The notes under the pieces were generated by a model. That model made no database searches. It saw nothing but the letters and a program-made list of their open reading frames with translations, and was not told the origin of the DNA. A stretch of DNA of 59,397 bases from assembly GCA_902795865.1 (NCBI GenBank), contig CADBMV010000064.1, forward strand, positions 1 to 59,397. Reading direction: 5' to 3'. Origin of the DNA: an uncultured Erysipelotrichaceae bacterium. Lineage in GTDB: Bacteria > Bacillota_I > Bacilli_A > Erysipelotrichales > Erysipelotrichaceae. The position numbers and the translations under genes are program-made. Below, piece after piece: positions 34,322 through 55,529 of the stretch. Positions within the stretch are counted from its first letter, which is position 1. Every line of letters begins with the position of its first letter.

Positions 34322-34322
34322 T

Positions 34323-35315
34323 TTAATCCCAATCCTTACTACCTACATAAATCACTTTAGTTCCACTATTCTCTAAATCAAAAGGAAGTTCTACTAAATC
34401 AGACATAGCTTTTCTTAATTGTTCTTGCTTATCTTGTTCACAATAGAATAGTAAGAAGCCTCCTCCACCTGCACCAAGTAATTTACCACCTAAAGCACCA
34501 GAATTAATGGCTTTATCATAATATTTATTAATAGTACTATTAGAGATACTAGAAGCTAACTCTTGTTTTAATATCCAGTTTTCATTTAAGATTTCACCAA
34601 AATTATGTAAATTACCATCAGTTAATGCTTGTTTCATATCATAAGCTAAACCAGTCATCTTTTTTAAGTTTTCAAACTTTGCATCTTCACTAATGATATT
34701 CTTGTTTTGTTCTTGAAGTATTTCTGAAGCAGAATGAGTTAAGCCAGTATAAAACAATAATAAATTGTTAGCTAATTGTTTTTTTACTTTTTCACTTATA
34801 ATTAATGGCTCAACATCAACTGATCCATCTGACATAAATCTAATAAACTTTAAACCACCAATAGCTGTACCATACTGATCTTGTTTACCAATTGGTTCAT
34901 TTAGTTTATTTATTTCTAAATCACAAGCTTCAGAAGCAATTCTTTCTTGTGAACAATATTTACCTTTATATGCATATAAAGCATGTATTAAACCTACTGT
35001 ATAAGCACTAGAAGTAGATAGTCCTGTACCTGAAGGAATATCTGCAGTAGAAACAATCTCTATACCACTTAAATTGTGATCTAATAATAATTGTCTAGCG
35101 ATAGGATGTTGGATATCTTTTACGTCCTTAGCTATCTCTGTTTTACTATATTTCACAATAGTATCTTCTCTATTAAAAGTAGGATGTATAGACACATACA
35201 TGTATTTATTAATAGTAGTAGAAACTACACAACCTTCATGTTTTTCATAAAAAGATGGTAAATCACTACCACCACCTGCAAAACTAATTCTAAAAGGCGT
35301 TCTTGTTATAATCAT
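34323..35315 (-). CDS. hddA: GHMP-family sugar kinase, probable D-glycero-alpha-D-manno-heptose 7-phosphate kinase
   Basis: 330 aa with MIITRTPFRISFAGGGSD, PSGTGLSTSSAY and GAGGGGFL. Confidence 0.82.
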   Translation of the reverse strand: MIITRTPFRISFAGGGSDLPSFYEKHEGCVVSTTINKYMYVSIHPTFNREDTIVKYSKTEIAKDVKDIQHPIARQLLLDHNLSGIEIVSTADIPSGTGLSTSSAYTVGLIHALYAYKGKYCSQERIASEACDLEINKLNEPIGKQDQYGTAIGGLKFIRFMSDGSVDVEPLIISEKVKKQLANNLLLFYTGLTHSASEILQEQNKNIISEDAKFENLKKMTGLAYDMKQALTDGNLHNFGEILNENWILKQELASSISNSTINKYYDKAINSGALGGKLLGAGGGGFLLFYCEQDKQEQLRKAMSDLVELPFDLENSGTKVIYVGSKDWD

Positions 35316-39551: not shown

Positions 39552-40484
39552 CTAGATCGAAATCTTTCCAATCATGTTTAATTTAGTTAGTAATATAAAT
39601 GGATAAAATATCAACCTAGCGTTTCTAAATCCATTTTTCTTTACAACTTCTTTTATTTCTTTAATAGCTATCTCATTTTTAGATACTTTATCTTTATTCT
39701 TATTAGTCTTCATAATGAAATAGAATATAATACCTAAATACTTATTATATGCAAGATTCTCGTATTCAGTATTTTTATAATAATTTAATATTTCTAAACC
39801 AGCTTCAACTTTATCATAGTTATCATCAGAATAGGTATTTCTTGTGAGTGAATTATCTCTCATTCTAATCTTATAAGCATAGTAATTGATGTGTGCAACA
39901 TTATCGAATGTCTCTAATAGTTTATAAGTAATGAATGTATCTTCAAAATGTTTACCATCAGGAAATCTTAATGTTTCAAATGTTTTTTTTCTAAATAATT
40001 TACAAACAGGTGATTCTCTAAAGATTTCATCTTTAAAGTATTCATATAATACTTCTTGTCTAGTATATAATCTAGTAGATTTATCTCCTATTTCAGGATC
40101 ATCTAATTCGTTCATATCTAAACAAGAAACATCTGCATCATATTTATTCAAAAGATTATATAAAGTTTCAATATAATCATCTTTCACAACATCATCACTA
40201 TCAATAAAAGCTAATAGATTAGTTCTATCATCTTTATAAAATATATCTATTCCATAATTTCTTGCGCTAGCTGCACCACCATTTTCTTTATAGTAGTAAG
40301 AAACTCTATTATCTTTCTTAATGATTTCATTTATTACTTGTCTACTATTATCACTACTACCATCATCTACACATATTATTTGAATATTAGAGTATGTCTG
40401 ACACAATAAAGATTCAATACATTCTTTTACATATTGTTCAGTATTATAAACAGGAATCACAACACTAATTAATTCATTATTCAT
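39552..40484 (-). CDS. GT2 family glycosyltransferase
   Basis: 310 aa with ISVVIPVYNTEQYVKECIESLLCQTY, CVDDGSSDNS and IDSDDV. Confidence 0.88.
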   Translation of the reverse strand: MNNELISVVIPVYNTEQYVKECIESLLCQTYSNIQIICVDDGSSDNSRQVINEIIKKDNRVSYYYKENGGAASARNYGIDIFYKDDRTNLLAFIDSDDVVKDDYIETLYNLLNKYDADVSCLDMNELDDPEIGDKSTRLYTRQEVLYEYFKDEIFRESPVCKLFRKKTFETLRFPDGKHFEDTFITYKLLETFDNVAHINYYAYKIRMRDNSLTRNTYSDDNYDKVEAGLEILNYYKNTEYENLAYNKYLGIIFYFIMKTNKNKDKVSKNEIAIKEIKEVVKKNGFRNARLIFYPFILLTKLNMIGKISI

Positions 40485-41422
40485 TATGATTTATATAACC
40501 TCATAGCTTTATTTAAGATAGACCCTAACATTGTATCATTTTCTAAAGCAATTGCTTCATATATTCTAGAGTATATACATGATTTTAATGATTCATAGTC
40601 TTCATTGCGTTTATTAGTATTTTTTAAGTAATTATTTAAAATATTAAAGATTCTAATACAATCAAAAATGTTTTTCTTTTCTTTTCTTTCGATTTTTAAA
40701 GACTTCAATATTTCTGATTGATTATTTTCATTGCATACCAACTCTCTTACATTTAGATATTCTTGTAGTCTTTTAAATGGATTGGCAGCAGTTAAACTGT
40801 TACTGTCACCAACACGATAATAAGTTAATACTTCTGGTAAATTACAGCCTTTTGAATATTTCAATATTTCATTCCATAATTTATATTCAACCGCAACTCT
40901 AATATTTAAATCATAATTCAAATTATTATCTTTTAATACAGAATTTCTAATCATAACTGCAGGATGATAAAAAGGGCTTTGAATATTTAAATATTTTCTT
41001 ATTCCTTCATCTGTAGTACATAGTTTATTAATTTCATATAGATTGTTATTAGTATCAATATGTCTTGTCCAAGAACCTACTATTCCATATTCAGGATTAT
41101 TTTCTAAGAATCTAACTTGTTTTTCTAATCTGTTTTCTAGCATTAAATCATCAGCATCTATTCTTGCGATATATTTAGTATTTATTAAATTAACGCCTTT
41201 ATTCAAAGAACCTGTTGGACCTATATTTTCTTCATTAATAACTAATTTAATCCTAGGATCATCATAGCTTTTGATAACTTCTACAGTATTATCTGTAGAT
41301 GCATTATCAATTATTAATAATTCAAAATCTTTATAAGACTGTTTTAAAACACTATCAATACAAAGATTGATATTAGGGTTGTTGTAAACAGGTAGTAAAA
41401 CTGTAACTAATACCTTTTCCAC
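40484..41422 (-). CDS. GT2 family glycosyltransferase
   Basis: 312 aa with TVLLPVYNN, LLIIDNASTDNT and RIDADDL. Confidence 0.88.
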   Translation of the reverse strand: MEKVLVTVLLPVYNNPNINLCIDSVLKQSYKDFELLIIDNASTDNTVEVIKSYDDPRIKLVINEENIGPTGSLNKGVNLINTKYIARIDADDLMLENRLEKQVRFLENNPEYGIVGSWTRHIDTNNNLYEINKLCTTDEGIRKYLNIQSPFYHPAVMIRNSVLKDNNLNYDLNIRVAVEYKLWNEILKYSKGCNLPEVLTYYRVGDSNSLTAANPFKRLQEYLNVRELVCNENNQSEILKSLKIERKEKKNIFDCIRIFNILNNYLKNTNKRNEDYESLKSCIYSRIYEAIALENDTMLGSILNKAMRLYKS

Positions 41423-41426
41423 TCTA

Positions 41427-43193
41427 TTAATTATAATATAACTTTAAAAATATATATGTATCATAGACATCATCAAAGTCTATAGTCTTTACATTACAAT
41501 TTAAGATAGCCTCATCATTACCACCTTTTAACTCATTGCCTAAATAGATGATTCTATCTCTATCTAAATTCTCTTTTTTAATAATTAATTCAAAAGTTTT
41601 CTCCTTAGAAAAATCCTTCTTCATAATATCAATAGATGTATGTCCAGCTATTTCAGCCTTATATTCATCATTATATTTTTTAATAATATCTTGTATCACC
41701 AATAGTTTTTCTTCTCTATTAGTAAGAGGCTTAATTGTTAAGATAGCTCCTCCTCTTACACTAATCTTACCTTTATATTCTTCATGAGATTCTAATTCTT
41801 TAATTAACTCATCACTTATTAAAAACTCTTGAGATAATAATTTTCCACCATCATCATTATTCAAATTAAAATATGTATTGCCATAGTTACAATAAATATC
41901 TTCCCCAGTATACTTCTTATAATAATCTTTAACAATATCATAGACATGTCTATAGTTATTACCTGATAAAATAACTCCCTTAAACAGTTCCATATTCTTT
42001 ATGCAGATAGTTTTATCCTTCATATGTTCATCCCATAAAGTTCCATCTAAATCAGATACTAATTGATAATCAATATCTTTTAAATCATAATAATCCTTCA
42101 TAATTAAAGAAACTACTGACTCAGGATTGTGTTTAGAATTATTCTTATCTGATAATATTCCATGAATATATTTAAAATCAGCATCTATATGATTCATTGA
42201 TTCATCAGCATTATCATTAATCACAACAGTTACATCTTTTAAATCTAAATAATTATTAATTAGCTTCAATAATTCATCTGCCCCAACACCTTTACAATCT
42301 TGATCTTGTGCATTATTCATTACTAAATACTTTTTAGCTTTACTATTTTTAATTAATTCATTAAAACCGATATGCATATAACTAGGTATTAATGACGACC
42401 ATTGTGTTCCTGAACTAAAAATAATAATATCCGCATCATTTACTATCTCTATAATATCTTTATCGTTGTTTTCATTTATTGTAGGTAAGTATTCCTTACC
42501 ATTCTTATCTTTTAAGATAGCTTTAACTACTTTATCATTTGGATTATTCCAAATAACTAAATCACCTTCATCTGATATTACATGTCCAGATTGTGTTTCG
42601 TTATATAAGAATAGATTCACATCAGATATCAAATGTACTCTATCTTCAATATTTAATATTTCTGCCATTCTTGAGCCAGCCTTCTCAAGTGAATTATTAT
42701 TTAATGCTGCACAAGAGGCATAGAAAATATTAGATAAAGAGAAATCTTTAAAACTTACTTCTTCAATACCATTTCTTAAATTGCCACCTAGATAAAAGAA
42801 ATGATTTAAATATTTAATAAATAATTCTTTTGTCTTTAAATCTAAATAATCGATGTTTTTAATTATATTTAAAGCCTTTTTATAATAATCGTTATAGTCA
42901 TCAGCATCTAGTCTTAATTCGAATAGATTATATAATTTAGATTCTTTAGAATTATTATTTTTTAATTCATTTTTATATTTTAATTTAAACTGTGTTAACT
43001 GATTCTTTCTTAAGTCGCTTGGTCCTAAAATATCACTATTGAATATTTTTCTACATACACCTGTTGACTTACCATTATCATATGCATTTATGATTGCGTG
43101 AAGTTCATAGTTTCCATAATCAAAAAGAGAGTCAAATCCTCCCTGTAAAGCTTTACCACCTGATCCTCCACAAAATAGTACAATCTTTAACAT
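41427..43193 (-). CDS. CofD/YvcK-family (UPF0052, 2-phospho-L-lactate-transferase-like) domain fused to a HAD phosphatase domain
   Basis: 588 aa. The N-terminus has KIVLFCGGSGGKALQGG, HAIINAYDNGKSTGVCRK and GPSDLRKN. The C-terminal ~210 aa have SDLDGTLWD (HAD motif I) and GNELKGGNDE. GGGAGA SD upstream. Confidence 0.68.
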   Translation of the reverse strand: MLKIVLFCGGSGGKALQGGFDSLFDYGNYELHAIINAYDNGKSTGVCRKIFNSDILGPSDLRKNQLTQFKLKYKNELKNNNSKESKLYNLFELRLDADDYNDYYKKALNIIKNIDYLDLKTKELFIKYLNHFFYLGGNLRNGIEEVSFKDFSLSNIFYASCAALNNNSLEKAGSRMAEILNIEDRVHLISDVNLFLYNETQSGHVISDEGDLVIWNNPNDKVVKAILKDKNGKEYLPTINENNDKDIIEIVNDADIIIFSSGTQWSSLIPSYMHIGFNELIKNSKAKKYLVMNNAQDQDCKGVGADELLKLINNYLDLKDVTVVINDNADESMNHIDADFKYIHGILSDKNNSKHNPESVVSLIMKDYYDLKDIDYQLVSDLDGTLWDEHMKDKTICIKNMELFKGVILSGNNYRHVYDIVKDYYKKYTGEDIYCNYGNTYFNLNNDDGGKLLSQEFLISDELIKELESHEEYKGKISVRGGAILTIKPLTNREEKLLVIQDIIKKYNDEYKAEIAGHTSIDIMKKDFSKEKTFELIIKKENLDRDRIIYLGNELKGGNDEAILNCNVKTIDFDDVYDTYIFLKLYYN

Positions 43194-43209
43194 TTAGTCT
43201 CCCAAGTAT

Positions 43210-43941
43210 CTAACAATACTCTTCTACTATTTTATCAAGTTCTTCCTTAGTATTAAATGATAAAATCTTATTTGCATCTATTATTATAGCTTTTACTGGT
43301 TTATTTAACTCATAATGATAATTAAATATATCTAATAATCTTACTTCTTTAGTTTCATTAGGATCATAGTCTTCTGAGTTTAATCCTAAATAATCTTTAT
43401 AATCCATTAAGTATTCTTCTAGTGTATTTAAATCAAAACAGAATAAAGATTGATCATGTATACCCTTATCTATTTCTCCATCAGTCTTTTTAAAATGTGA
43501 CTTAATAATATAATTATTAGAATCTACATCAAACCATGCATATGGTTTTTCATCTATTGAACATGCTACGTTCCAATCATCATTTTCAATCTTTTCTTTA
43601 AATTCAATAAATGGTGTTTCATCTACAAAGAAAGCATCTCCCCAACACACAAATAATCTTTGCAAATTAGGGTTGTCTTTTTTAACTAATCTAGTTAGTT
43701 TTAATAAAGACATTGCATCACCTTGACCAGTAGTAATACTTAAAATCTTAGCATCTACATTCAAATCAAAACTATTTACAGTTTCAATATTCAATCCTAA
43801 ATAAATCTCATCAAATACTTTTCTTGCATACTTAATGGTGTTATCTACATTCATTTCATCTTTAAGCATACATAAAGCTTTTGGATAACCTCCAAATCTT
43901 GATGATTTACCAGCTGCAACTATTAATAATGCACTATTCAT
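43210..43941 (-). CDS. MobA-like nucleotidyltransferase (NTP_transf_3-type)
   Basis: 243 aa with LIVAAGKSSRFGGYPKALCML at the N-terminus. It overlaps the upstream gene by 8 nt. Confidence 0.68.
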   Translation of the reverse strand: MNSALLIVAAGKSSRFGGYPKALCMLKDEMNVDNTIKYARKVFDEIYLGLNIETVNSFDLNVDAKILSITTGQGDAMSLLKLTRLVKKDNPNLQRLFVCWGDAFFVDETPFIEFKEKIENDDWNVACSIDEKPYAWFDVDSNNYIIKSHFKKTDGEIDKGIHDQSLFCFDLNTLEEYLMDYKDYLGLNSEDYDPNETKEVRLLDIFNYHYELNKPVKAIIIDANKILSFNTKEELDKIVEEYC

Positions 43942-45010
43942 TTTTTAATCTTTCTATAATGTCTTTTAATTCTTCTATATTTTCAGGTACAAATATTTTA
44001 CTAGAATCAGAATATTTTTCTTTTAATTGATCTATCATTTCATTGAACCATGGTATTTCATTACCATCTAATCTATTAAGTAATAATTTATAAATAAATA
44101 TTACGTAAGGTTCTTTGTTTCCTAACATCTTGGCAGAAAATTGCACTGTAGAAAAAAATGACAACAGTATATGTTTATCAGTTATATTCTCTATACATTC
44201 TATTTCCCACATATTATTGATATTATCCATATCAATATCTTCATATACCAAATCTTTTTGTCTAGGATGTAATCTAACTAAAGGATTAAATGATTTAATA
44301 TCTAATTGTTTAATAATATCAATAAACTTTACACCATTGTAGTTTTCTCTTGATTCTAGAGGCTGCTCAAGAATGATTAGTTTATGATCTTTTAATAAAG
44401 AATCACTATTATAACTAAATACTTTTTTAATAATATCTATTGCTTTATTATCTTTATTCAATACTGGTAATTGTTCAATATTCTTAGAGATTGTAGACTT
44501 ACAAAATTCTTTGTTATTCACATATAATTTTTGTATATCAAATGCATATACATCACTTTTTAACAATTTATTAATAAAAGGATATTTATATGTTCTTTCA
44601 TCAATTATGCAATTTCCACTATAAGTAATAATTCCATCATCATAGATGTATACCTTTGGTTTATTTTTATAATTTAAAGCTACACCTAATAATCCTCTAT
44701 CACCTACAAACAATTGATCATAATCTTCATGTAAGAAACTATTATCAGAAAAATTATATCCACATAATATCTTTGAATAACTTAAAGTATCAAATAATCT
44801 ATCTAATTTAACATTTTCATTTCTATAACATCTATATACTTTATTAAATAATTTTGTTTCTTCTAACTTATTACATAATTCTTCAGCATTCTTAAACCAC
44901 ATCTCCACAAAAACATCAGTATTAGCTGCTGTGTTTTCTACATTATTAACTACCATGTTAATGGTATTTAATATCTTTAAAGGTGAATTTGATACAAATG
45001 CAGTTTTCAT
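43934..45010 (-). CDS. GT52-like (bacterial sialyltransferase-motif) glycosyltransferase, candidate ulosonic-acid (Kdo) transferase
   Basis: 358 aa. The N-terminus has FVSNSPLKILNTINMV. D/E-D/E-G motif in KVYIYDDGIITY, HP motif in VRLHPRQKD, and a late LSFFSTVQFS block. Confidence 0.6.
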   Translation of the reverse strand: MKTAFVSNSPLKILNTINMVVNNVENTAANTDVFVEMWFKNAEELCNKLEETKLFNKVYRCYRNENVKLDRLFDTLSYSKILCGYNFSDNSFLHEDYDQLFVGDRGLLGVALNYKNKPKVYIYDDGIITYSGNCIIDERTYKYPFINKLLKSDVYAFDIQKLYVNNKEFCKSTISKNIEQLPVLNKDNKAIDIIKKVFSYNSDSLLKDHKLIILEQPLESRENYNGVKFIDIIKQLDIKSFNPLVRLHPRQKDLVYEDIDMDNINNMWEIECIENITDKHILLSFFSTVQFSAKMLGNKEPYVIFIYKLLLNRLDGNEIPWFNEMIDQLKEKYSDSSKIFVPENIEELKDIIERLKNE

Positions 45011-46417
45011 CTATCCTCCATTAAATAATCTAATAAGTTCATTTCTATTCTTATAAAGCATATAAAGCATCATTAAACCATTAATTATAAATAATGCTAA
45101 TCTGATTAATACATTATTCACAAATACCGTAGATATTATATCAATAATTAATAAAGCAATAATAGTTCCTATTAAAACTTTAATGTCATAAAACTCATTT
45201 TTATCTAGTTTTCTAGCAAAATATGAATGAATGACTAATAAGACAAGCCTACTTATTAATAAGGCATATGGAGCTCCAAATAAGCCATATTTATTAATTA
45301 ATAAATACAATAATACAACTTCAATACTAGAGCTGATTATTGATGCCAACATAACATTCTTAGTGTTTTTATAGAAGTATTGAGTATTTAAAGGAGTATA
45401 GTATAAAAAACTAATATAAACATCAATTGATAGTGGTATTAAACAATATATTGCATCCCAATAATTCTTATTAATAAATAAATGAAAGAAATCTGGAACT
45501 ATTAATATGAATTCTGCTATTAAACTAGCAAATATTACATAACAAATACTATTAAATCTTTTAATCAAAACATAGTCCTTTTTATTCGTTGCATCAAAAA
45601 ACCAAGGATTCCATGCGTTTTCAAAAGTAGCTAATAATACTTGTGGAATATTTAATAAAGTAATAGCCATACCATATATACCTACATTAGAAAAATCAGT
45701 TAAATATTGAATTGATAGTGTTGCAAGTTGAGCAAACAAAGATATCAAAAAGGTATGTACTATTAATGGTGAACCCCATTTTAAAGCTTTAGAGATATAA
45801 GAGGTATTATATTTTTTTACACCTACTACTAAATACATATAAATAAAACTAATAATATTAGCTAATAATATTCCATATATCTTAGCTTTATGAACTTCAT
45901 GATCTTTAAATATAGTAAATATCAATAATAAAGATACACCTAAATTAATTACTGTATTAATTACTAAATAAACAAAATAGGCTTTATATCTGCCATCTAA
46001 TGTTAATCTTCCACCTAGTAAAATACACCCTGCAGAAAAAGCTACATCTATGATTAATATATTCCAAAGAAGTCTATTAAACGACAAGAAATTAGGATTA
46101 ATAAATAATACTATATTTACACCAATTAGTAACAATAAAGCCACAGAAAAACATATCAATAACACTGTAGCTGTATAAGAATCATAATCTGTTTCTTCAT
46201 CATATTTAGATATTCTGATTGTTGCAGATAAGCCTAATAAGACAATTGATTCAATAATAGTCGCATATGTAACAAAAGAAGTAAATATACCATTTTCATA
46301 TGTTGAAAGTAAATCAGAAAATAATGGTAATACAAAAATCGCAACACCCTTTACAAGAATGTTACCAATCGCATACCAAGACATAGCTTTTATAATACTG
46401 AATTTTTTCTTTTCCAT
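45011..46417 (-). CDS. wzx: Wzx-type (MOP superfamily) polysaccharide flippase
   Basis: About 468 aa with 12-14 TM helices. The track starts at TTG 46426; I prefer the ATG at 46417 (MEKKKF), which overlaps the upstream stop as TAATG. Confidence 0.78.
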   Translation of the reverse strand: MEKKKFSIIKAMSWYAIGNILVKGVAIFVLPLFSDLLSTYENGIFTSFVTYATIIESIVLLGLSATIRISKYDEETDYDSYTATVLLICFSVALLLLIGVNIVLFINPNFLSFNRLLWNILIIDVAFSAGCILLGGRLTLDGRYKAYFVYLVINTVINLGVSLLLIFTIFKDHEVHKAKIYGILLANIISFIYMYLVVGVKKYNTSYISKALKWGSPLIVHTFLISLFAQLATLSIQYLTDFSNVGIYGMAITLLNIPQVLLATFENAWNPWFFDATNKKDYVLIKRFNSICYVIFASLIAEFILIVPDFFHLFINKNYWDAIYCLIPLSIDVYISFLYYTPLNTQYFYKNTKNVMLASIISSSIEVVLLYLLINKYGLFGAPYALLISRLVLLVIHSYFARKLDKNEFYDIKVLIGTIIALLIIDIISTVFVNNVLIRLALFIINGLMMLYMLYKNRNELIRLFNGG

Positions 46418-47436
46418 TAGCTGCAAATTAAATTAAGATATTTGTTGTTTATTTTAAATAAAACATAACCTATTATAGTACAAATCACTACTACAACAAA
46501 ACTCATCATAAGCATACTTATTTCCATATTAAATACTCTCATTAATAAACTCGCAAGAATCGTTCTAAACAAAGGATGAGAATAATACATAAATGTTGAA
46601 GTATACTTACATATTTTTCCTAAATGACTATATTCATTTAAAGGGTGTTTAAGAAGAAATATCAAAAATACAAATGTGAATAAATACATTGATATTGCAG
46701 ATATATTTGATGGCACAACAATAACCTTGCTCATAAAATATGTCTCTATAAATATCAATATCAATAAAACAATTAAACTAATAATCAGTTTATTATCATT
46801 AATCTTCATTAATCTATCGTTGTTGTTAGCTATGTACATACCCATCATAAATAATGGAAAACCATGTAAGAAGATACGACAATATGTAGTGAAATATTTA
46901 TAATTAAAGAAATTCACTAATATTGGAATATTCTTACCAACAAAATAATAATATGTCCCAAGTAATCCTATTACATACAAAACAATAGCTATTTTATAAA
47001 ATACTTTTTCCAAGTTATATTTATGTATTAAATATCCAAATAATACATACAAAACAAGTGAAGCCATAAACCATAAATGAAAACCTGTTCCATTAATAAA
47101 TAAACTAACTAATTGAAGTTTAATGAAATCATAAATAGCCATCTTGCCACTTAATATTTCATTATAGATATTTATTAGAGTATATATTATTATCCAGAAA
47201 CAAATAGGAATTATTAATCTTTTAATATTCTTCTTAACAGAATCAAAACCATCTTTATTTAAACTAATAGTAAAGTAATATGCAAAAGCTACATGAAAGA
47301 AATATAATGCATATCTAAATAGATCAAATAGAAAAGACTTGTCAATATTGATAAGTCTTACATGTGAATCAACGATCATTATTGCGCAAAAATATTTAAA
47401 AATATCTATTGACGCATTATACTGTTTCTTTACCAT
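46417..47436 (-). CDS. Acyltransferase family 3 membrane protein
   Basis: 339 aa. NASIDIFKYFCAIMIVDSHV at the N-terminus and about 10 TM helices. Confidence 0.7.
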   Translation of the reverse strand: MVKKQYNASIDIFKYFCAIMIVDSHVRLINIDKSFLFDLFRYALYFFHVAFAYYFTISLNKDGFDSVKKNIKRLIIPICFWIIIYTLINIYNEILSGKMAIYDFIKLQLVSLFINGTGFHLWFMASLVLYVLFGYLIHKYNLEKVFYKIAIVLYVIGLLGTYYYFVGKNIPILVNFFNYKYFTTYCRIFLHGFPLFMMGMYIANNNDRLMKINDNKLIISLIVLLILIFIETYFMSKVIVVPSNISAISMYLFTFVFLIFLLKHPLNEYSHLGKICKYTSTFMYYSHPLFRTILASLLMRVFNMEISMLMMSFVVVVICTIIGYVLFKINNKYLNLICS

Positions 47437-48349
47437 TTGCTATCCAGTCAATAACTTGCCTTACTGCACCACATCCACCATCTAAAGTAGATATAAAATT
47501 TGATTCTTTCTTTACTTTATCAGATGCATTTCTTACACAAGCACTAATACCACCATTTGAATTAACTAATCTGATACAATCTAAATCATTATCATCGTCA
47601 CCAATATAGACAACTTGATTTAGATTAATTTCTAATCTACTACATATTTCTTCTAATTTAGTTTTCTTATCTTTAACACCTTGATATAGATGTCTAATTT
47701 TTAGTTCTTTACATCTTCTTTTTAAATATTCTGATTTTCTTGCGGTTAATACAACAGGTATTATTCCTAAGCTTGGAAGAATATTACCTAAACCATAACC
47801 ATCTTTTATATTGAATGATTTAAATAATTCACTATCTTCACCCATATAAATAGTTCCATCAGTTAAAGTACCATCTGTATCCATTACAACTGCTTTAATA
47901 TCTTTAGTATTAATATATGGGACTTTAAAGACTATCTTTTTTACTTTTTGATGAACACCATCTTGTACATCAACACAAGGCATATGTGCTTGATCAGGAT
48001 AAAAAATCATGAAGCTTTTTTCTTTTAATTCGTATTTTTTACCTTGTTTATTATCATAGTAAAAACAGATATCTTTTTCTTCATCATATGGTTCACATAT
48101 TTCTAGATTGCTTATTTCATCCACAATCATTTTTTCTGAACCAGAAATCATTAATTGAATATCAATATATTTTCTATGTGACTCATATTTTCTTTCAGAT
48201 CTTGATTTAGTGAGATATTCTTCTACATTGGCATATATTCCATTTTTAAAATATCTTTTCCCTACAGGAAGAGCTTTTAAATCTGTAGTCTTTAAAAAAT
48301 CAAATACAACACTACTTAATTCTTTGATATCGTTTTTTCTTTCACTCAT
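47417..48349 (-). CDS. kdsC: Fusion: YhcH/YjgK/YiaL (NanQ-family cupin) domain + Kdo-8-phosphate phosphatase (KdsC, HAD)
   Basis: 310 aa. The N-terminal ~146 aa have GKRYFKNGIYANVEEYLTK, ESHRKYIDIQLMISGSEKM, FMIFYPDQAHMP and VKKIVFKV, the YhcH family pattern. The C-terminus has VVMDTDGTLTDGTIYMG, FNIKDGYG, IGDDDNDL and GGCGAVRQVIDWI, matching KdsC. Confidence 0.85.
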   Translation of the reverse strand: MSERKNDIKELSSVVFDFLKTTDLKALPVGKRYFKNGIYANVEEYLTKSRSERKYESHRKYIDIQLMISGSEKMIVDEISNLEICEPYDEEKDICFYYDNKQGKKYELKEKSFMIFYPDQAHMPCVDVQDGVHQKVKKIVFKVPYINTKDIKAVVMDTDGTLTDGTIYMGEDSELFKSFNIKDGYGLGNILPSLGIIPVVLTARKSEYLKRRCKELKIRHLYQGVKDKKTKLEEICSRLEINLNQVVYIGDDDNDLDCIRLVNSNGGISACVRNASDKVKKESNFISTLDGGCGAVRQVIDWIANGKETV

Positions 48350-49311
48350 ACTATTACTCCAGCTTTAACTATTTGTCTCCAGTCAACAACACCAATTAAC
48401 TTATCATTTTCATCTACTACTGGTAAGTTATTGATGTTTTTACTTCTGATAAATTTTAAAGCTTCAATAGCTAATTTATCTGAACTAATTCTTTTAGGAT
48501 TATTAGTCATAACATTCTTAACTTTTTCTGAATAAATATCTACTCTTTTTTCAATTACTCTTCTAAGATCTCCATCAGTTAAAATACCTTCAAGTTTATT
48601 ATTATCGTCCACCATACAGACAACACCTAATCCTTTATTAGTCATTTCTTTAATTGCGTCAACTAATAAAGAATTTGTATTTACACTTGGTAACTCTTTT
48701 CCATAAGCCATACAATCTTTAACTTTTAGAATTAATTTTTTACCTAAAGCTCCTGCAGGATGAAGCTTACCAAAATCTACATCTTTAAAATCATACATTT
48801 CTGAAGCTACTACTGCTAAGGCATCTCCATATACTAACTCTACTGTTGTAGAAGATGTAGGAGCCAAACCTAAATGACATGCTTCTTCAAATTCAGGTAA
48901 TACTTGAACTATATCAACATTTTTAGCTAAAGTAGATTCACTCTTGCCTGTAATCGCAATTATTTTGCAGCCAATCATTTTTATTGCAGGTAATATTTCT
49001 AGTATTTCACTAGACTCACCAGAATAAGAAATAATAATTACGACATCATTTTTAGAAACCATTCCTAAATCTCCATGCATAGCCTCTGCAGGATGAAGAT
49101 AGAATGATGGTGTTCCTAAACTTGAAAATGTTGCGGCAATCTTTTGAGCAATATGACCAGGTTTACCCATACCTGTCACAATAACTTTGCCTTCGCAATT
49201 AGATATTTCATCTAAAATATTCAAAAATGTTTCATTTAAAATATCTCTTGTCTTTTTAAGAGCTTCAATCTCAATATCAAATACTTTCTTAGCTTCATTT
49301 AATCTATCCAT
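48346..49311 (-). CDS. kdsD: Arabinose-5-phosphate isomerase (SIS + tandem CBS)
   Basis: 321 aa with VTGMGKPGHIAQKIAATFSSLGTPSFYLHPAEAMHGDLGM and two C-terminal CBS repeats. ATGA overlap with the kdsC fusion. Confidence 0.92.
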   Translation of the reverse strand: MDRLNEAKKVFDIEIEALKKTRDILNETFLNILDEISNCEGKVIVTGMGKPGHIAQKIAATFSSLGTPSFYLHPAEAMHGDLGMVSKNDVVIIISYSGESSEILEILPAIKMIGCKIIAITGKSESTLAKNVDIVQVLPEFEEACHLGLAPTSSTTVELVYGDALAVVASEMYDFKDVDFGKLHPAGALGKKLILKVKDCMAYGKELPSVNTNSLLVDAIKEMTNKGLGVVCMVDDNNKLEGILTDGDLRRVIEKRVDIYSEKVKNVMTNNPKRISSDKLAIEALKFIRSKNINNLPVVDENDKLIGVVDWRQIVKAGVIV

Positions 49312-49319
49312 ATTAACTC

Positions 49320-50096
49320 CTAATGAACTGCATCATATACTTTTATTACTCTTTCAAGTAATGCCTCAAATTCATCTAATTTAACCATATTAGGACCATC
49401 AGATAAAGCATTATCTGGGTCTGGATGTACCTCAAAAAATAATGCATCAGCTCCTGCAGCAACTGCAGCTTTAGCTAAAGGTTCCACATATTCTCTATTA
49501 CCACCAGTTACAGTTCCCTTACCACCTGGTTTTTGTACAGAATGGGTTGCATCAAACACTACAGGATAGCCTAGTTTCTTCATTTCATAAATGCCTGTCA
49601 TATCCACAACTAAAGTATTATAGCCAAAGCTATTTCCTCTTTCACAAAGCATTATATTTTTATTACCAGTTTCTTCTAACTTAGTAACTACATTCTTCAT
49701 ATCCCAAGGAGCTAAAAATTGTCCCTTTTTCACATTAATTAACTTACCAGTTTTACCAGCTGCTTCTAATAAATCTGTTTGTCTACATAAAAACGCAGGT
49801 ATTTGAAGCATATCACAGACTTCAGCTGCCTTTGATGCATGCCAAGGCTCATGTATATCAGTTACAATCTTTACACCAACTTCATCTTTAACTTTCTTTA
49901 GTATTTTTAAACCTTCTTCAATACCAGGCCCTCTAAAAGAAGTAATAGAAGTTCTATTAGCTTTATCAAAAGATGATTTAAAATATAAATCTAAATCTAA
50001 CTTATCAGCTATTTCTTTTAATCTTTTAGCTTCTTTTAATACTAACTGTTCAGATTCTATTACACATGGTCCTGCAATAAGTATAAACTTAGCCAT
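49320..50096 (-). CDS. kdsA: 3-deoxy-D-manno-octulosonate 8-phosphate synthase, metal-dependent type
   Basis: 258 aa with [10 protein letters not shown] (Cys at the metal-ligand position), [18 protein letters not shown] and [22 protein letters not shown] upstream. Confidence 0.95.
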
Positions 50097-50832
50097 AAAT
50101 GACCTCCATTAATTCTTCCACTTCTTTAACTTGTTCAGGAGTATCAACTCCTACAGTATGATATTTAGTTTCTTTAACTTTAATTTTATATCCATTTTCT
50201 ATAGCACGTAATTGTTCTAAGGATTCAGATAACTCAAGTTCAGATTTATCCATCTTAGAATATTTCATCAAAAACCACTTCTTATAACCATAAGCACCTA
50301 TATGCTTATAATGATTGGTTTTTCTATTTTCGTCTCTTTCATAAGGAATAGTAAATCTAGAAAAATATATAGCATCATGATTAATATCATCTATTACTTT
50401 TACTACATTAGGATTATCTAATTCTTCCTTCTTATCAATTAATACTTTTAAAGTTCCAAAATAAACATCTTTATCTTCAAAAACTGAAACTAGATCTTCA
50501 ATCATTTCTTTTCTAAAAGTAGGCTCATCCCCTTGAATATTCAAAATGATATCTTCATCATCTAATTTCAATATTTCAGCACATTCCGCAAGTCTATCTG
50601 TTCCACAGGTATGCTTATCAGAAGTCATCAATGCTTTACCATTAAATGATTCAACACAATCATATATTCTAGAATCATCTGTAGCTACATAAACTTCATC
50701 AACTTTATCGCACTTCAAAGCATTTTCATAAACCCATTCAATCATAGGTTTTCCTGAAATAATAGCTAAAGGCTTACCAGGAAACCTAGTAGAACCATAT
50801 CTAGCAGGTATAATTACAATAGTTTTCATCAT
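50089..50832 (-). CDS. kdsB: CMP-Kdo synthetase (3-deoxy-manno-octulosonate cytidylyltransferase)
   Basis: 247 aa with [17 protein letters not shown] and NIQGDEP. Confidence 0.93.
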
Positions 50833-50837
50833 TAATA

Positions 50838-50866
50838 ATTATAAAATATATATATTAAATAGACAA
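50838..50866 (-). promoter_or_regulatory. Candidate promoter of the kds operon, -10 only 5 nt from the ATG
   Basis: On the minus strand: TTGTCT (50866-61), 17 nt spacer, TATAAT (50843-38), tatta, ATGATG. No SD is present. It sits immediately downstream of the terminator hairpin. Confidence 0.4.
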
Positions 50867-50887
50867 AAATCACCATTTAGGTGATTT
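50867..50887 (-). terminator. Intrinsic terminator after the 529-aa membrane-protein gene
   Basis: On the minus strand: AAATCACC-taaat-GGTGATTT, followed by TTGTCTATTT. The left arm overlaps the TAA stop. Confidence 0.55.
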
Positions 50888-52475
50888 ATGATGTTAAGGA
50901 TTTTAATTGTTCATAGCTATCGAAGATATATAAAGTTCTATAGCCATCATTATACTTAATAAATCTGCTTACATCTTGCTTAAACTTAACTTCTTCATAA
51001 TCTTCTTTAATTAAGAATAAATATACTTTGCCTGTTGCATGTCTAGTTCTGTGTTCTTTAGATTGCAACCACACTGCAATATCATCAATATTACCATTTC
51101 TAAATACCCAAGTTTCAATTTCGCCATTAGATAATTCTGTAAGTATATTATTACCAGACCAGTGATCTTGAGAGTATCCATTATAACAATTATTCTTAAT
51201 CAAAATATCTCTTATTTCTGGCATTATTGCATATGGATTATTATCAGCTCTATAACGTATTTGAAATCTTGTATTTATAGCTAAAAACATCACCACAAGC
51301 ATAAGCATTATACATTTTTGCCAATCAATTTTAAATCTACTTAAAAAGATTCCTACAATAAATGCACTATATACTGATACAGGTAATAAATATCTATCTC
51401 GATACCAAGTATCAGTAAATGTGAATAATAAACTTATTATTAATGCTGCAACAATAAAATACATTAATATAAACTTTTCATATTTCTCATATTCTTTATA
51501 TTTCATAATCATATGAATTAAAGCAAAATTAAATATCACAAAGAATAAAGCAAATAATGGTTTAATAATTATTTGAATTGGAATAAACGCAAATAAGTGA
51601 TCAGCTTGATAACCTAAAGCATATAACCAACCATTTATTACTGTAGCTAGTTGTTCAAAAGTAAATGGTGCATAGAATACTTCTAATCCTCCAGATTGGA
51701 AAGAATATCCCAAGTTTCTTAATACCTTGCCATTAATTAAAGCACCTATAAATCCTGCAGCAAAAGTTAAAATTGCAATTACTATTAATTCAACATATTC
51801 TTTCTTAAATTCAAATTTACCTTCTTTTAAATTATCTAATTGATTAAAGAAGTAATACATAACAGCTGCAACTACCACAGGCATATAAGTCAAGAATACT
51901 AGTCTTGCTCCTTCTAAACCTGCTCCTAATGCCAATAACATCAATACAACACTTTTAATTATCTTTTTATTTCTGTTTAATTCTGAATGAATAGATATTA
52001 ATAAACCCATAGACAAAAAAGATATAACAATATGCGGTATATAACATGAATCCAAAGTTACTACCTTGTAATAATCTTTAGATATTGTTCCTACAATCAT
52101 AAAGCCAATCCAAGGAATGTGTTTCATATTTAATTGTCTTGCAAGATAGTAATAACTTAAAAACAAGATAATAATTAATATACCCATACCTACCATTCTT
52201 ACTGTTAGCCAATTATCAGTAATTAAAAATAAAGGCATGAATATTAAATTAGTATTTAATACTCTAATTTCTGTTGAATAATACCAGTTTTTAGAAATAA
52301 TTGCTTTTTCACTAGCCAATAATTTAGCTAATACAAGTTCACTAGACATATCAGATTCCATTGAATAATATAATCTAGGATAGATCTGAAACATCATATA
52401 TACAAAAAACAAAGCCAATACAATATAGCCTATTAAATCAGAGTGTTTCTTAAAATAATCAAAGTATTTTTTCAT
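50886..52475 (-). CDS. GT-C-like polytopic membrane protein with C-terminal soluble domain
   Basis: 529 aa. Acidic loop MESDMSSELV after TM1, about 12 TM helices, and a ~130-aa C-terminal domain. No specific family recognised. Confidence 0.5.
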   Translation of the reverse strand: MKKYFDYFKKHSDLIGYIVLALFFVYMMFQIYPRLYYSMESDMSSELVLAKLLASEKAIISKNWYYSTEIRVLNTNLIFMPLFLITDNWLTVRMVGMGILIIILFLSYYYLARQLNMKHIPWIGFMIVGTISKDYYKVVTLDSCYIPHIVISFLSMGLLISIHSELNRNKKIIKSVVLMLLALGAGLEGARLVFLTYMPVVVAAVMYYFFNQLDNLKEGKFEFKKEYVELIVIAILTFAAGFIGALINGKVLRNLGYSFQSGGLEVFYAPFTFEQLATVINGWLYALGYQADHLFAFIPIQIIIKPLFALFFVIFNFALIHMIMKYKEYEKYEKFILMYFIVAALIISLLFTFTDTWYRDRYLLPVSVYSAFIVGIFLSRFKIDWQKCIMLMLVVMFLAINTRFQIRYRADNNPYAIMPEIRDILIKNNCYNGYSQDHWSGNNILTELSNGEIETWVFRNGNIDDIAVWLQSKEHRTRHATGKVYLFLIKEDYEEVKFKQDVSRFIKYNDGYRTLYIFDSYEQLKSLTS

Positions 52476-52476
52476 C

Positions 52477-54306
52477 TTAATTAAACTCCTTTAAAGCTAT
52501 ATTTCCACTAGTATTAATAACTTTATATATAGTTTCATCTTTATAATTATTTCCATCATTTAATGATGAAAAATAATTATTAAAAGTATCACTGGATTCA
52601 ACCACATAAATATAATCATATTGACTTAATTCTTTAATTGCTTCATTTACTTCGTTATTATTTTTATACTCATTCTTATAAAAATCAGTATTTACTTTAC
52701 ACAAATAAATATCATCTAAATAATATGAAACAAATGCTGGATATGAATCAGCAATATCATGATTATAAAGAATATATACATATGATCCTTTTTCTAATTT
52801 ATCTTCAAATTTTTGTGCTAATTGTTCATACTTAGTAAATCTGTTTCCTAAAATAACTTGTGGGACAAAATTAAGTAGTTTATTTGAATCAAATAGTACT
52901 AATACTAGTAATACTCCTATAAAAGCTTTCTTTAAATCAAAACTATTTAATCTATCTTTAAATGTAAGTATGTACATAAATAAAATACTAATGAATAGAC
53001 CTGTAGTCATACTAGATAAATAACGATGATATGAAATTAAGATTAAAGCTTCTCTTTCTGGATAACAGAATACATATAATATCATCATCATAAAAGCATA
53101 ACCAGCTGTACCTAAAATACAAACTAATTCAAATTTACTAATATTAATATCATCATTAAATCTCTTTAATACTTCTAATAATAATAATTCAACTAATAAT
53201 GATGATAAGAATGTCATAGGTATTGGATAGTTATATAAGTTTTCTTTAAATAATGCATTTATATATAACTTTAAAGCTTCAAATTGATATGAATCAGGAT
53301 TATTTAATACATTAATAAAACCATTAATACTAACTTTAGATAAGTCAAATTGTTTAACTATATCATATGGTTTTATTAATTGATTCCACAATAAATAAAA
53401 ACCTAATGGTAATAATATACTCAACACAAAACCAATTAATACATTTTTATTATTAAGTCTTTTAATATTTACAATTAAATAATAAAAGATTCCTAGTAAT
53501 ACAAAAGCTATACCAACTTGTTTAGTCATGATTATTGATACAAGTCCTAAACATAAACCTAACAAACCTAGAATGTTGTCAGATTCATAGGTATAGATAA
53601 GATAGATACAATAGACAAATTCTAGACCAATTAATGTATCAGTATAAATAGTATTGAATACATTAGCACTATCTAGATACATTACTATTCCAATAAAAGC
53701 TATAGCTATTAAAAAGTTGATTAAAACTTTTTCTAATTTTTTCTTATCATTAAATAAATCATCTATAAACAAAGGTAATAATAAGCCAAATTCATACATA
53801 TGAAGTCCAACAGTACAACTTGCTTCATTAAAACCTAACGCTAATTTACACCATAATAGTTCAAATAAAGGTATAAAAGGTGGATAATCATTGTGACCTC
53901 TTAAACTTGATTCATTTAAATAATAAAACTTATCAAGTCTAAACATTTCTTTAACCATCTTTCCCCAAAAACCAAGTTCATCATCCCAGAAGAAGTGTCT
54001 GCCAAAATTAATAAACATAAATATAATAGCTAAACATATAAATACATATAAACCGTTAGTTAATACATATTCTTTTCTATCTTTATGTTTATATAAACAA
54101 TAAGCACTAAATATACATAAAACTAATAACAAATAAAACCCAATATTAAACGTCCTAAATAATAATTGGCTTATAAACATTATTAAAATAGACATTAAAA
54201 AACTAATTGGTAACATAAAACCAAATTTTCTCTTAAATAGAGTAGAAAAGCCTCCATTTAAGATGATAAAGAATATAACAGGTAATAAGTTTAATAATAC
54301 TTTCAT
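52477..54306 (-). CDS. GT-C-like polytopic membrane protein with C-terminal soluble domain
   Basis: 609 aa. Acidic loop FFWDDELGFWGK, about 14 TM helices, and a ~130-aa C-terminal domain. Its stop is 1 nt before the next gene. Confidence 0.5.
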   Translation of the reverse strand: MKVLLNLLPVIFFIILNGGFSTLFKRKFGFMLPISFLMSILIMFISQLLFRTFNIGFYLLLVLCIFSAYCLYKHKDRKEYVLTNGLYVFICLAIIFMFINFGRHFFWDDELGFWGKMVKEMFRLDKFYYLNESSLRGHNDYPPFIPLFELLWCKLALGFNEASCTVGLHMYEFGLLLPLFIDDLFNDKKKLEKVLINFLIAIAFIGIVMYLDSANVFNTIYTDTLIGLEFVYCIYLIYTYESDNILGLLGLCLGLVSIIMTKQVGIAFVLLGIFYYLIVNIKRLNNKNVLIGFVLSILLPLGFYLLWNQLIKPYDIVKQFDLSKVSINGFINVLNNPDSYQFEALKLYINALFKENLYNYPIPMTFLSSLLVELLLLEVLKRFNDDINISKFELVCILGTAGYAFMMMILYVFCYPEREALILISYHRYLSSMTTGLFISILFMYILTFKDRLNSFDLKKAFIGVLLVLVLFDSNKLLNFVPQVILGNRFTKYEQLAQKFEDKLEKGSYVYILYNHDIADSYPAFVSYYLDDIYLCKVNTDFYKNEYKNNNEVNEAIKELSQYDYIYVVESSDTFNNYFSSLNDGNNYKDETIYKVINTSGNIALKEFN

Positions 54307-54347: not shown

Positions 54348-55529
54348 TTATAGTTCGTCCATCAATAAAAAGTCTTTTAATTTATAGTGATAGATCGTAC
54401 TTGTTGAAAAATCAATATCATCATTAGTTATTATTATTTTCTTAACAGTATTATCAATATCCTTGAAAGCAGAAAATTCTCTTTTGTATGTTTTTTCATC
54501 TACAACACTATAAGCAACTTGAACCATATATATTTTTCCATCTTTTGAAGCTCTAAAGTCGATTTCATGATTTTTGTTTTGAAAAACTGTTACTTCATAG
54601 CCTCTATACAACAACTCATTATAAACAATGTTTTCCATATTATGAGTTAAATCATAACGATTATCAATGGTTCTTATACTATTAAAAGATACATCTTCGT
54701 TATACAACTTATAATAATAGTTCATTTTTGATTTTGTTTTATTAGAATACAAAGGAACATTTGATATTACGTAGGCTTCTTCTAGATATGCTAGGTATTT
54801 AATAACTGTAGGAACTGAAACTTTGACATTTTGACTTTTCATGTAATCACTTATTGATTTTGCGCTAACAATACGAGAATTTGAAACTAGTATGTAATCA
54901 ACAACTCTTTCAAATACATCTTTTTTACGGATGTTATATCTGTTTTCTAAATCATTATAAATAATAGTGTTGTTCAAATCGTTTAAATAAATCTTTAAGG
55001 ATTCTAATTCTTTTTGATTTAAAGATGCAGGAAAACCACCCCAAACAAGATAATCACTAACTTTATAGTCTTCTTGTATCTGTTTTGAATATTCAAGTGC
55101 TTCTTTATATACAAATGGTCTAATTCTAAAAGATACATATCTTCCAGATAATTCTTTTGTAAATTCACGAGATAGTAGTTTTGAATTGCTTCCACTAATA
55201 AATATTGAACAATTTAAGAGTCTTAAAGTTCTACAAGCATCATTCCATCCATCAATATTTTGAACTTCATCTAAAAAAAGATACAGCTTCTTAGAATTGA
55301 TATGTTTCTCAACAAACGCAATTAATTCATCTGCATTTGAAATAATAGTTCTGTTTGTTTTTAATTCAAAATCAATAAAAAGACATTCCTTATTATCAGT
55401 TTTAATTTCTTCCATAATCTGTTTTAAAATAACTGATTTTCCAGATCTTCTTATTCCTGTAATTATTTTTATTAAGTCACTATCATAAAATGGACGTATT
55501 TTAGATATATATTGTTCTCTTTTAATCAC
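54348..55529 (-). CDS. AAA-type ATPase with DUF4143-like C-terminal region (COG1373-type), function unknown
   Basis: 393 aa with a GTG start. Walker A is ITGIRRSGKSV and Walker B is LYLFLDEVQ. It is the only gene in the window with no envelope-glycan link. Confidence 0.78.
   Translation of the reverse strand: MIKREQYISKIRPFYDSDLIKIITGIRRSGKSVILKQIMEEIKTDNKECLFIDFELKTNRTIISNADELIAFVEKHINSKKLYLFLDEVQNIDGWNDACRTLRLLNCSIFISGSNSKLLSREFTKELSGRYVSFRIRPFVYKEALEYSKQIQEDYKVSDYLVWGGFPASLNQKELESLKIYLNDLNNTIIYNDLENRYNIRKKDVFERVVDYILVSNSRIVSAKSISDYMKSQNVKVSVPTVIKYLAYLEEAYVISNVPLYSNKTKSKMNYYYKLYNEDVSFNSIRTIDNRYDLTHNMENIVYNELLYRGYEVTVFQNKNHEIDFRASKDGKIYMVQVAYSVVDEKTYKREFSAFKDIDNTVKKIIITNDDIDFSTSTIYHYKLKDFLLMDEL

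Follow-up and report, generated by a model that had tools for sequence, protein, structure and literature searches.

Known anomerases and the DUF386-KdsC fusion

That the cytidine monophosphate (CMP)-Kdo synthetase KdsB, which activates 3-deoxy-D-manno-octulosonate (Kdo), accepts this sugar acid only in its minor beta-pyranose form has been known since 1985. This form makes up ~2% of Kdo in solution, slow mutarotation limits the accumulation of CMP-Kdo in vitro and the KdsB step has been termed rate-limiting (PMC3149649, PMC9587256). The closest described enzyme of anomer handling is YhcH (NanQ), a Zn-containing protein that speeds up the ring opening and anomerisation of N-acetylneuraminic acid (Neu5Ac), and also acts on 2-keto-3-deoxy-D-glycero-D-galacto-nononate (KDN), meaning that the N-acetyl group is dispensable (PMC8141875). 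Free transition-metal ions act like YhcH, and Lewis-acid catalysis via the carboxylate and the C2 hydroxyl was proposed by the authors of the same study, in which yhcH mutants grew but were outcompeted; anomerase activity is established for the E. coli and H. influenzae proteins only (PMC8141875). Here, we describe a gene of an uncultured Erysipelotrichaceae bacterium (contig CADBMV010000064.1, assembly GCA_902795865.1; the whole analyzed stretch of 59,397 nucleotides is referred to as the window), in which a domain of the DUF386 (YhcH/YjgK/YiaL) family is fused to a KdsC-type phosphatase, directly after kdsB, kdsA and kdsD. An earlier note, made from this DNA sequence, had stated that yhcH is the last gene of the E. 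coli nan operon, that its family has been linked to the handling of anomeric or open-chain forms of Neu5Ac and that CMP-Kdo synthetase uses the minor beta-pyranose. The literature agrees on each of these points, with the gene order nanA-nanT-nanE-nanK-nanQ, the description of YhcH as a Zn-dependent anomerase or 'openase' (PMC8141875) and the KdsB studies cited above.

The N-terminal half of the fusion resembles YhcH/NanQ (E. coli b3221; H. influenzae HI0227, structures 1JOP/1S4C) in the family profile PF04074, the fold and the four metal ligands together with a Gln and a Lys. The NanQ substrates Neu5Ac and KDN are 2-keto-3-deoxy ulosonic acids, chemically near to Kdo, and both genes are the last of their pathway blocks and apparently dispensable. 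The fusion differs from NanQ in belonging to a biosynthetic and not a catabolic operon, in being covalently joined to a phosphatase and in its proposed partner, an anomer-specific cytidylyltransferase, whereas NanQ is partnered by an aldolase that needs the open chain. The C-terminal half is like KdsC/YrbI (E. coli; structures 3HYC and 3I6B) in its TIGR01670 profile, haloacid dehalogenase (HAD) motifs, fold and the company of kdsA, kdsB and kdsD; unlike E. coli KdsC, the protein has an extra N-terminal domain of 148 aa and its context is a monoderm-type surface polysaccharide and not the lipopolysaccharide (LPS) core. The role proposed below, an accessory speed-up of a spontaneous anomerisation for the next enzyme, is shared with NanM, a periplasmic mutarotase of Neu5Ac, and the classical sugar mutarotases GalM, RhaM/RhaU and FucU, which in contrast to DUF386 proteins have unrelated folds, use no metal and operate mostly in catabolic or uptake contexts; no such enzyme is known for Kdo, nor is any of them joined to the enzyme that releases the free sugar.

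Domain composition and predicted active sites of the fusion protein

The features of the fusion gene are as follows:

47417..48349, minus strand: whole DUF386(YhcH-like)-KdsC fusion gene, 310 aa (open reading frame, Pfam/NCBIfam domains, structure model and fold matches)
47921..48311, minus strand: DUF386/YhcH-like, predicted metal-binding beta-sandwich domain, aa 13-143 (PF04074; alignment with HI0227)
47435..47897, minus strand: KdsC-type HAD phosphatase domain, aa 151-305 (TIGR01670; invariant motifs; Foldseek)

Profile hidden Markov model (HMM) searches of the ATG-started reading frame assigned PF04074 to its N-terminal part with an E-value of 3.3e-37 (128.2 bits versus a cut-off of 26.5; Pfam), in agreement with TIGR00022 (114.6 bits versus 45.5; NCBIfam), and the KdsC/YrbI phosphatase subfamily TIGR01670 to its C-terminal part (127.6 bits versus 106.95). 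The two domains meet at aa 146-149 with nearly no linker. All six motifs quoted in the earlier note were found in the 310-aa translation: ESHRKYIDIQLMISGSEKM (aa 56-74), FMIFYPDQAHMP (aa 113-124) and VKKIVFKV (aa 136-143) in the DUF386 half, and DTDGTLTDG (aa 157-165), IGDDDNDL (aa 249-256) and GGCGAVRQV (aa 291-299) in the KdsC half.

For the DUF386 domain, the NanQ equivalog NF040884, the top specific model below the family level, gave only 84.6 bits (cut-off 160), and the fusion homologs tested scored between 64.6 and 102.3, none of them reaching the cut-off. The proteobacterial KdsC equivalog NF007019 scored 137.5 bits (cut-off 208); it seems too narrow for the KdsC of Bacillota, since the free KdsC proteins of two split operons described below (loci L011 and L013; 145 and 152 bits, respectively) were also below its cut-off. 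The equivalog for KDN-9-phosphate phosphatase (NF058599) was likewise below its cut-off (107.7 versus 180), and the substrate of the KdsC domain was taken to be Kdo-8-phosphate and not KDN-9-phosphate on the basis of the association with kdsA, kdsB and kdsD.

The predicted metal site of the DUF386 domain is composed of E56, H58, D63 and H122, plus Q65 and K142. The first four align with E63, H65, D70 and H130 of HI0227, which are the metal ligands of that protein (PMC12517248). The HAD motifs of the KdsC domain are D157-x-D159 (motif I), T202 (II), K228 (III) and G250-D251-D252..D255 (IV). In a survey of 121 fusion sequences (the window protein and 120 homolog clusters of both domain orders, with both domains taken from each), these HAD residues were invariant, and so were E56, H58, D63, H122, Q65, E72, D93, K138 and K142 of the DUF386 domain. 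Three further residues conserved in the fusions, Y45, K60 and Y88, are replaced by F, Q and F in E. coli NanQ; these were considered as a marker of Kdo as the substrate and rejected, as ~80-90% of free-standing relatives in unrelated contexts share them.

An AlphaFold2 model of the fusion (built with 13 homologs) had a mean predicted local distance difference test (pLDDT) value of 87.9 and a predicted template modelling (pTM) score of 0.83, the sole low-confidence part of the monomer being the flap hairpin at aa 166-181. The N-terminal half of the model is predicted to form a jelly-roll beta-sandwich and matched H. influenzae YhcH (1S4C_B) with an E-value of 1.3e-12 and a root-mean-square deviation of 2.2 A over 136 columns at 37% identity (Foldseek). 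The C-terminal half is predicted to adopt the cap-less C0 HAD fold of YrbI, as its top Foldseek matches were the YrbI/KdsC structures 3HYC, 4UM7, 3I6B and 2R8X (E 1.7e-15 to 1e-14; 33-39% identity). None of the Foldseek matches was a solved structure covering both halves.

The YhcH-family N-terminal domain read by the earlier note is therefore borne out by PF04074, TIGR00022, the metal site and the fold, and its KdsC phosphatase domain by TIGR01670, the HAD motifs and the Foldseek matches. The name 'NanQ-family' went too far, given the sub-threshold equivalog score and the Y45/K60/Y88 replacements. An assembly or frameshift artefact as the origin of the fusion was ruled out by the presence of the same architecture in 62 other clusters (90% identity level), and the fusion is confirmed as an observation far beyond chance.

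The kds block

The fusion lies in a block transcribed, on the minus strand, in the order kdsB, kdsA, kdsD, fusion, acyltransferase and flippase; the fusion is thus the last of the four kds genes, and not at the 'head' of the CMP-Kdo pathway, as had been stated in the earlier note. The features of this block and its flanks, beside the fusion, are:

50089..50832, minus strand: kdsB, CMP-Kdo synthetase, first of the block and the proposed user of beta-pyranose Kdo (TIGR00466, 237.5 bits versus cut-off 155.2; NF003952, 314.5 versus 193)
49320..50096, minus strand: kdsA, Kdo-8-phosphate synthase (TIGR01362, 412.3 versus 314; NF003543, 422.9 versus 242)
48346..49311, minus strand: kdsD, arabinose-5-phosphate isomerase with SIS and two CBS domains (TIGR00393, 327.9 versus 203.7; Pfam SIS, CBS)
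46417..47436, minus strand: Acyl_transf_3 O-acyltransferase, downstream of the fusion (Pfam)
45011..46426, minus strand: Polysacc_synt flippase (Pfam)
43934..45010, minus strand: 358-aa protein after the flippase, without a Pfam match (open reading frame)
50887..50867, minus strand: terminator-like hairpin (AAATCACCTAAATGGTGATTT, then a T-rich tail; consensus scan)
50866..50838, minus strand: promoter-like TTGTCT-17-TATAAT, downstream of the hairpin and just 5' of kdsB (consensus scan; weak evidence)

Adjacent genes of the block overlap by 4-20 nt or are spaced by 8 nt. The ATG of the fusion overlaps the kdsD stop codon (ATGA) and is preceded by GGAG, 9 nt upstream; the two genes are translationally coupled. 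The sole real gap, of 53 bp, is located 5' of kdsB, where the hairpin and the promoter-like site were found. Together these hint that the kds block may start its own transcript within a long co-directional gene array, although in DNA this rich in AT such promoter-like sites show no enrichment over shuffled sequences (86 versus 113 expected).

The genes for the acyltransferase, the flippase and the 358-aa protein (43934..47436) follow downstream, overlapping or abutting the fusion, and presumably their products use CMP-Kdo in polysaccharide assembly. They occur in the same order on a metagenome contig (L006), at 57-75% identity. The 358-aa protein, which is 73% identical to its counterpart there and contains the motif 'RLHPRQ', was suspected to be a Kdo- or sialyl-transferase-like enzyme; nothing was found in support of this, and the protein had no Pfam or PDB sequence match.

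Recurrence of the DUF386/KdsC pairing

A search with the fusion protein returned 570 matches, and domain architecture was read in the best 120 clusters at the 90% identity level. All of these 120 were two-domain proteins of ~300 aa, 62 with the order DUF386-KdsC and 58 with the reversed order, KdsC-DUF386. For the surrounding loci, DUF386 was identified with profile HMMs, since single-sequence phmmer missed known domains.

The gene order kdsB-kdsA-kdsD-fusion recurs in three places: (i) the locus of P0047 (42% identity to the window protein), from a Lachnospiraceae metagenome-assembled genome (MAG), (ii) the contig L006 (P0006, 55%), which is syntenic with positions 39552-54306 of the window over 13 genes, and (iii) Solobacterium sp. 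UBA1761 (L016), whose protein was the top match among species-representative genomes at only 39% identity, so that this genome collection seems to lack the species of the window. In a search with the DUF386 domain alone, the two nearest free-standing proteins were WP_163195535.1 of Clostridium thermarum (L011) and MBP5551479.1 of a Bacilli MAG (L013). Each of their genes is placed between kdsD and a free kdsC (TIGR01670, 138 and 143 bits, respectively, above the cut-off). These split operons share with the window the order kdsB-kdsA-kdsD-DUF386-kdsC and a DUF386 domain of 43-48% identity, and differ in that DUF386 and KdsC are encoded by distinct genes.

By pairwise identity, KdsC domains from fused and free proteins were interleaved. 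The fused KdsC of L001 shares 71% identity with the free one of L065, and the nearest relatives of the KdsC domain in the window come from L006 (a fused protein), L013 (a split operon) and L017, a Roseburia kds locus in which DUF386 lies at a distance of 3 kb. The two domain orders, the split form and this interleaving indicate repeated fusion or fission of DUF386 and KdsC; such events were gauged from the order of the domains and the identities between nearest neighbours rather than from a well-supported tree. The earlier note had proposed a survey of how frequent the fusion is and whether free-standing YhcH homologs neighbour kds genes. With both orders, the split kds form and the invariant catalytic residues, its outcome supports a functional link between the two domains, for which the recurrent pairing is strong evidence of the Rosetta-stone type.

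The reversed fusion in a second CMP-sugar cassette

The reversed KdsC-DUF386 fusions (e.g. P0093, P0071 and P0119) have the same two domains and invariant residues as the window protein and also a CTP_transf_3 neighbour in a polysaccharide locus. They were found outside kds operons, in a conserved cassette in which HMGL-like and (split) acetolactate synthase (ALS)-like genes take the place of kdsA and kdsD. The cassette is composed of genes encoding (i) a ~220-aa CTP_transf_3 cytidylyltransferase with weak similarity to PseF/KdsB, (ii) an HMGL-like protein, whose top match, 4-hydroxy-2-oxovalerate aldolase, is below the cut-off, (iii) in most cases, a split ALS-like thiamine pyrophosphate (TPP) enzyme, and (iv) KdsC-DUF386; an MptE-like gene is often nearby. 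An example is L003:4599-8957, and it is also seen in L007, L009, L010, L048, L055, L056 and ~30 more loci within L016-L095. Counting versions that have or lack the TPP enzyme, and KdsC either carrying or lacking DUF386, 37 of the 80 KdsC loci from species-representative genomes belong to this cassette.

A literature search found no published description of this HMGL/ALS cassette, and it may represent a pathway, not described before, for a CMP-activated 2-keto-3-deoxy sugar acid. By analogy, a 2-keto-3-deoxy sugar-acid phosphate might be made from pyruvate and an aldehyde, then dephosphorylated and activated with CMP. As the reversed fusion stands beside another CMP-sugar synthetase, the pairing follows a 'phosphatase then cytidylyltransferase' logic and not one lineage.

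Distribution of DUF386 among KdsC loci and within its family

The 80 KdsC loci came from a scan of species-representative genomes that was seeded from KdsC motifs, and is therefore unbiased for DUF386, and were classified with profiles. DUF386 was present in:

kdsA+kdsD operons around KdsC: 2/23
HMGL-only cassettes: 0/31
HMGL+ALS cassettes: 4/6 (Fisher p = 2.3e-4 versus HMGL-only)
loci in another context or in none that could be recognised, among them diderm LPS-type loci (Acidobacteriota, Burkholderiaceae, Fusobacterium, Bacteroidales): 0/20

The DUF386 family as a whole comprises 5,835 representative clusters (E<=1e-3), and only ~9 of the nearest 150 of these have two domains. In one protein of 451 aa (P0289), a YdjC-like carbohydrate deacetylase (aa 23-270) is followed by DUF386 (aa 307-447); judging from its domain matches, DUF386 is apparently attached to other sugar-processing enzymes too. 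A free DUF386 gene was also found 5' of a cytidylyltransferase/HMGL/ALS/KdsC cassette in a Thermoplasmata archaeon MAG (SUSU01000005.1; L072:2212-6589). The family has been stated to be absent from archaea (PMC8141875), and this copy could be the result of horizontal transfer or a binning error.

Proposed function and alternative explanations

In line with the Kdo anomerase suggested in the earlier note, we consider it slightly more probable than the contrary that the fusion is a bifunctional Kdo-8-phosphate phosphatase/Kdo anomerase that feeds KdsB, and infer that its DUF386 domain acts on Kdo, between KdsC and KdsB. In the proposed mechanism, the KdsC domain would hydrolyse the Kdo-8-phosphate formed by KdsD and KdsA, releasing free Kdo. 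The divalent metal of the DUF386 domain, held in a Zn-type E/H/D/H site, would then serve as Lewis acid towards Kdo, at its C1 carboxylate and C2 hydroxyl, and the hemiketal ring would be opened, so that ring forms interconvert faster, as with YhcH/NanQ on Neu5Ac and KDN. The scarce beta-pyranose anomer would thereby be replenished, the sole form that KdsB turns into CMP-beta-Kdo, and the product would be destined for a Kdo-containing surface polysaccharide of a low-GC monoderm Bacillota-type bacterium. Since the DUF386 step would merely speed up a spontaneous reaction, it should be useful at high flux (a polymer repeat unit versus two Kdo per LPS) and otherwise dispensable.

Several points weigh against this reading. 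To our knowledge, no DUF386 protein has been shown biochemically to act on Kdo, and the sequence of the domain falls short of the NanQ equivalog. The fusion partner is KdsC and not KdsB, which does not indicate the side of the phosphatase that is served. The remoter free-standing DUF386 relatives are located beside glycoside hydrolases and other carbohydrate-degradation genes or in unrelated contexts, so membership in the family alone leaves the substrate unfixed. In neighbour-joining trees of the DUF386 and KdsC domains (100 bootstraps), deep nodes had <50% support. The mutarotase NanM 'was not required' in aldolase assays with Kdo (PMC13220900), which hints that ring opening of Kdo is not always limiting. 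Moreover, DUF386 is missing from 21 of the 23 kds operons sampled, many of them in Bacillota, and from all diderm LPS-type loci sampled; because of this, it cannot be obligatory in the pathway, and Kdo activation works without it. Such a patchy distribution is, on the other hand, what would be expected if the enzyme hastens a step that also proceeds spontaneously and is of benefit only when flux is high, and it matches the dispensable-but-advantageous phenotype of yhcH mutants.

The DUF386 domain could instead work upstream of the phosphatase, opening or anomerising Kdo-8-phosphate, the product of KdsA, into the ring form preferred by KdsC. In the loci seen, DUF386 is fused to or adjoins KdsC and never KdsB, the DUF386-KdsC order leaves almost no linker, and the conserved basic K60 (Q in E. 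coli NanQ) could in principle bind phosphate. This position is, however, occupied by K or R in ~90% of the free-standing relatives, as well as in TabA, YiaL and EbgC, and hence is no phosphate-binding marker. We know of no anomer preference of KdsC, the documented kinetic bottleneck is that of KdsB, and we regard this explanation as unlikely. It also appears improbable that the domain is a non-catalytic module binding a sugar acid or metal, either a Kdo/CMP-Kdo sensor regulating KdsC or a dimer interface organising its tetramer. KdsC is a tetramer in which the active site is capped by a neighbouring subunit, and the flap hairpin was the one stretch modelled with low confidence in the monomer. 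Non-enzymatic roles or phenotypes occur in the family, with EbgC being a subunit of the Ebg beta-galactosidase and TabA/YjgK known for biofilm phenotypes, and YjgK forms a dimer in the crystal. Nevertheless, the full metal site and its second shell (Q65, E72, D93, K138 and K142), invariant in the 121 sequences, are more typical of catalysis, and the separately translated DUF386 of split kds operons implies that covalent scaffolding is not required.

If the domain performed other chemistry on Kdo or an intermediate (epimerisation, keto-enol isomerisation or lactone opening), the product would be a modified octulosonic acid and not plain CMP-Kdo. The jelly-roll fold is distantly cupin-like, and cupin-like metal sites catalyse many sugar isomerisations; the enrichment of DUF386 in the ALS-like cassette, with its extra chemistry, could likewise mean a non-standard sugar acid. 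We find this rather doubtful, as KdsA, KdsB and KdsD all score above the cut-offs of their equivalog or subfamily models, in favour of standard Kdo, and ring opening/anomerisation is the sole activity demonstrated in the family. The least plausible explanation, and a very improbable one, is that a sialic-acid-type (NanQ-like) anomerase was fused or co-located by operon shuffling, with no functional coupling. NanQ is indeed the best specific model after that of the family, and polysaccharide loci are mosaic and often rearranged. Against it stand the two domain orders, the split-adjacent form and the fixed place after kdsD, in at least 120 clusters; furthermore, none of nanA, nanE, nanK and nanT was found in the annotated regions of the window or in any fusion locus examined.

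As regards the preferred reading, in which the DUF386 domain supplies KdsB with the right anomer, a full-text search found no paper linking DUF386/YhcH to KdsC or Kdo biosynthesis, or describing a Kdo mutarotase, and such proteins, including those of L011 and L013, are named by NCBI only 'YhcH/YjgK/YiaL family protein'. The novelty presumably lies in the recruitment of a known anomerase-type domain to a biosynthetic nucleotide-sugar pathway. There is, in our estimation, an even chance that such DUF386 domains serve in biosynthesis as dedicated ulosonic-acid mutarotases, i.e. an optional fifth CMP-Kdo enzyme feeding KdsB, with the same module used in at least one other, undescribed CMP-sugar-acid pathway (that of the HMGL-like aldolase and ALS-like enzyme). 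If the proposed function is true, it would explain how makers of Kdo-rich polymers cope with the need of KdsB for a ~2% anomer. A textbook pathway for which no enzyme of Kdo mutarotation is described would gain an accessory step, and the DUF386 family, with one characterised member so far, its first biosynthetic role and a second function. Database names of the 'YhcH/YjgK/YiaL family protein' entries could then be corrected, and the domain would be a practical additive for the enzymatic synthesis of CMP-Kdo and Kdo-glycans. Attention is also drawn to Kdo-containing surface polymers in gut Bacillota and to the widespread CMP-sugar cassette.

The wider surface-polysaccharide region

The whole 59-kb window has a GC content of ~27% and is devoted to surface glycopolymers. 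Its genes include an LtaS-like member of the sulfatase family, a GDPD gene, rmlA/rmlC and those of a TagGH-like ATP-binding cassette (ABC) exporter, together with many for glycosyltransferases, a cassette of the glycero-manno-heptose type, a gene for a CofD-like/HAD protein and aminosugar genes; no transfer RNA genes were found in it. The GC content, the LtaS-like gene, the TagGH-like exporter and the presence of homologs in Lachnospiraceae and Erysipelotrichales point to a low-GC monoderm Bacillota-type host, and the region fits an organism that places Kdo in a polymer of the wall or capsule. For Gram-positive bacteria, islands of Kdo genes have been termed 'unexpected' (Bacillus coahuilensis, PMC4744853).

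Directly 5' of kdsB, the minus strand encodes two hydrophobic proteins of 529 aa (50886-52475) and 609 aa (52477-54306) without Pfam matches. Counterparts are present at the same place in L006 (62% and 56% identity, respectively) and not in L001, and the two are candidates for a polymerase, transferase or export component of the Kdo-containing polymer. Downstream of the kds block (41427-43941, minus strand), a 588-aa fusion of a CofD-like domain (2-phospho-L-lactate transferase family) and a HAD-like region is encoded beside a MobA-like nucleotidyltransferase of 243 aa. Both genes are kept in L006, and the pair suggests a phospho-linked non-sugar substituent on the polymer.

The glycero-manno-heptose-type cassette (31496-35315, minus strand) consists of genes for a SIS protein resembling GmhA, a 436-aa fusion of NTP_transferase and HAD (HddC-GmhB-like), an epimerase/dehydratase and a GHMP kinase; an NTP_transferase-HAD gene like this one is also present in L010. 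Finally, the run of polysaccharide genes is broken by an AAA_14/DUF4143 ATPase gene with a GTG start (54348-55529, minus strand), of a kind often found where the junctions between cassettes are mobile or variable.

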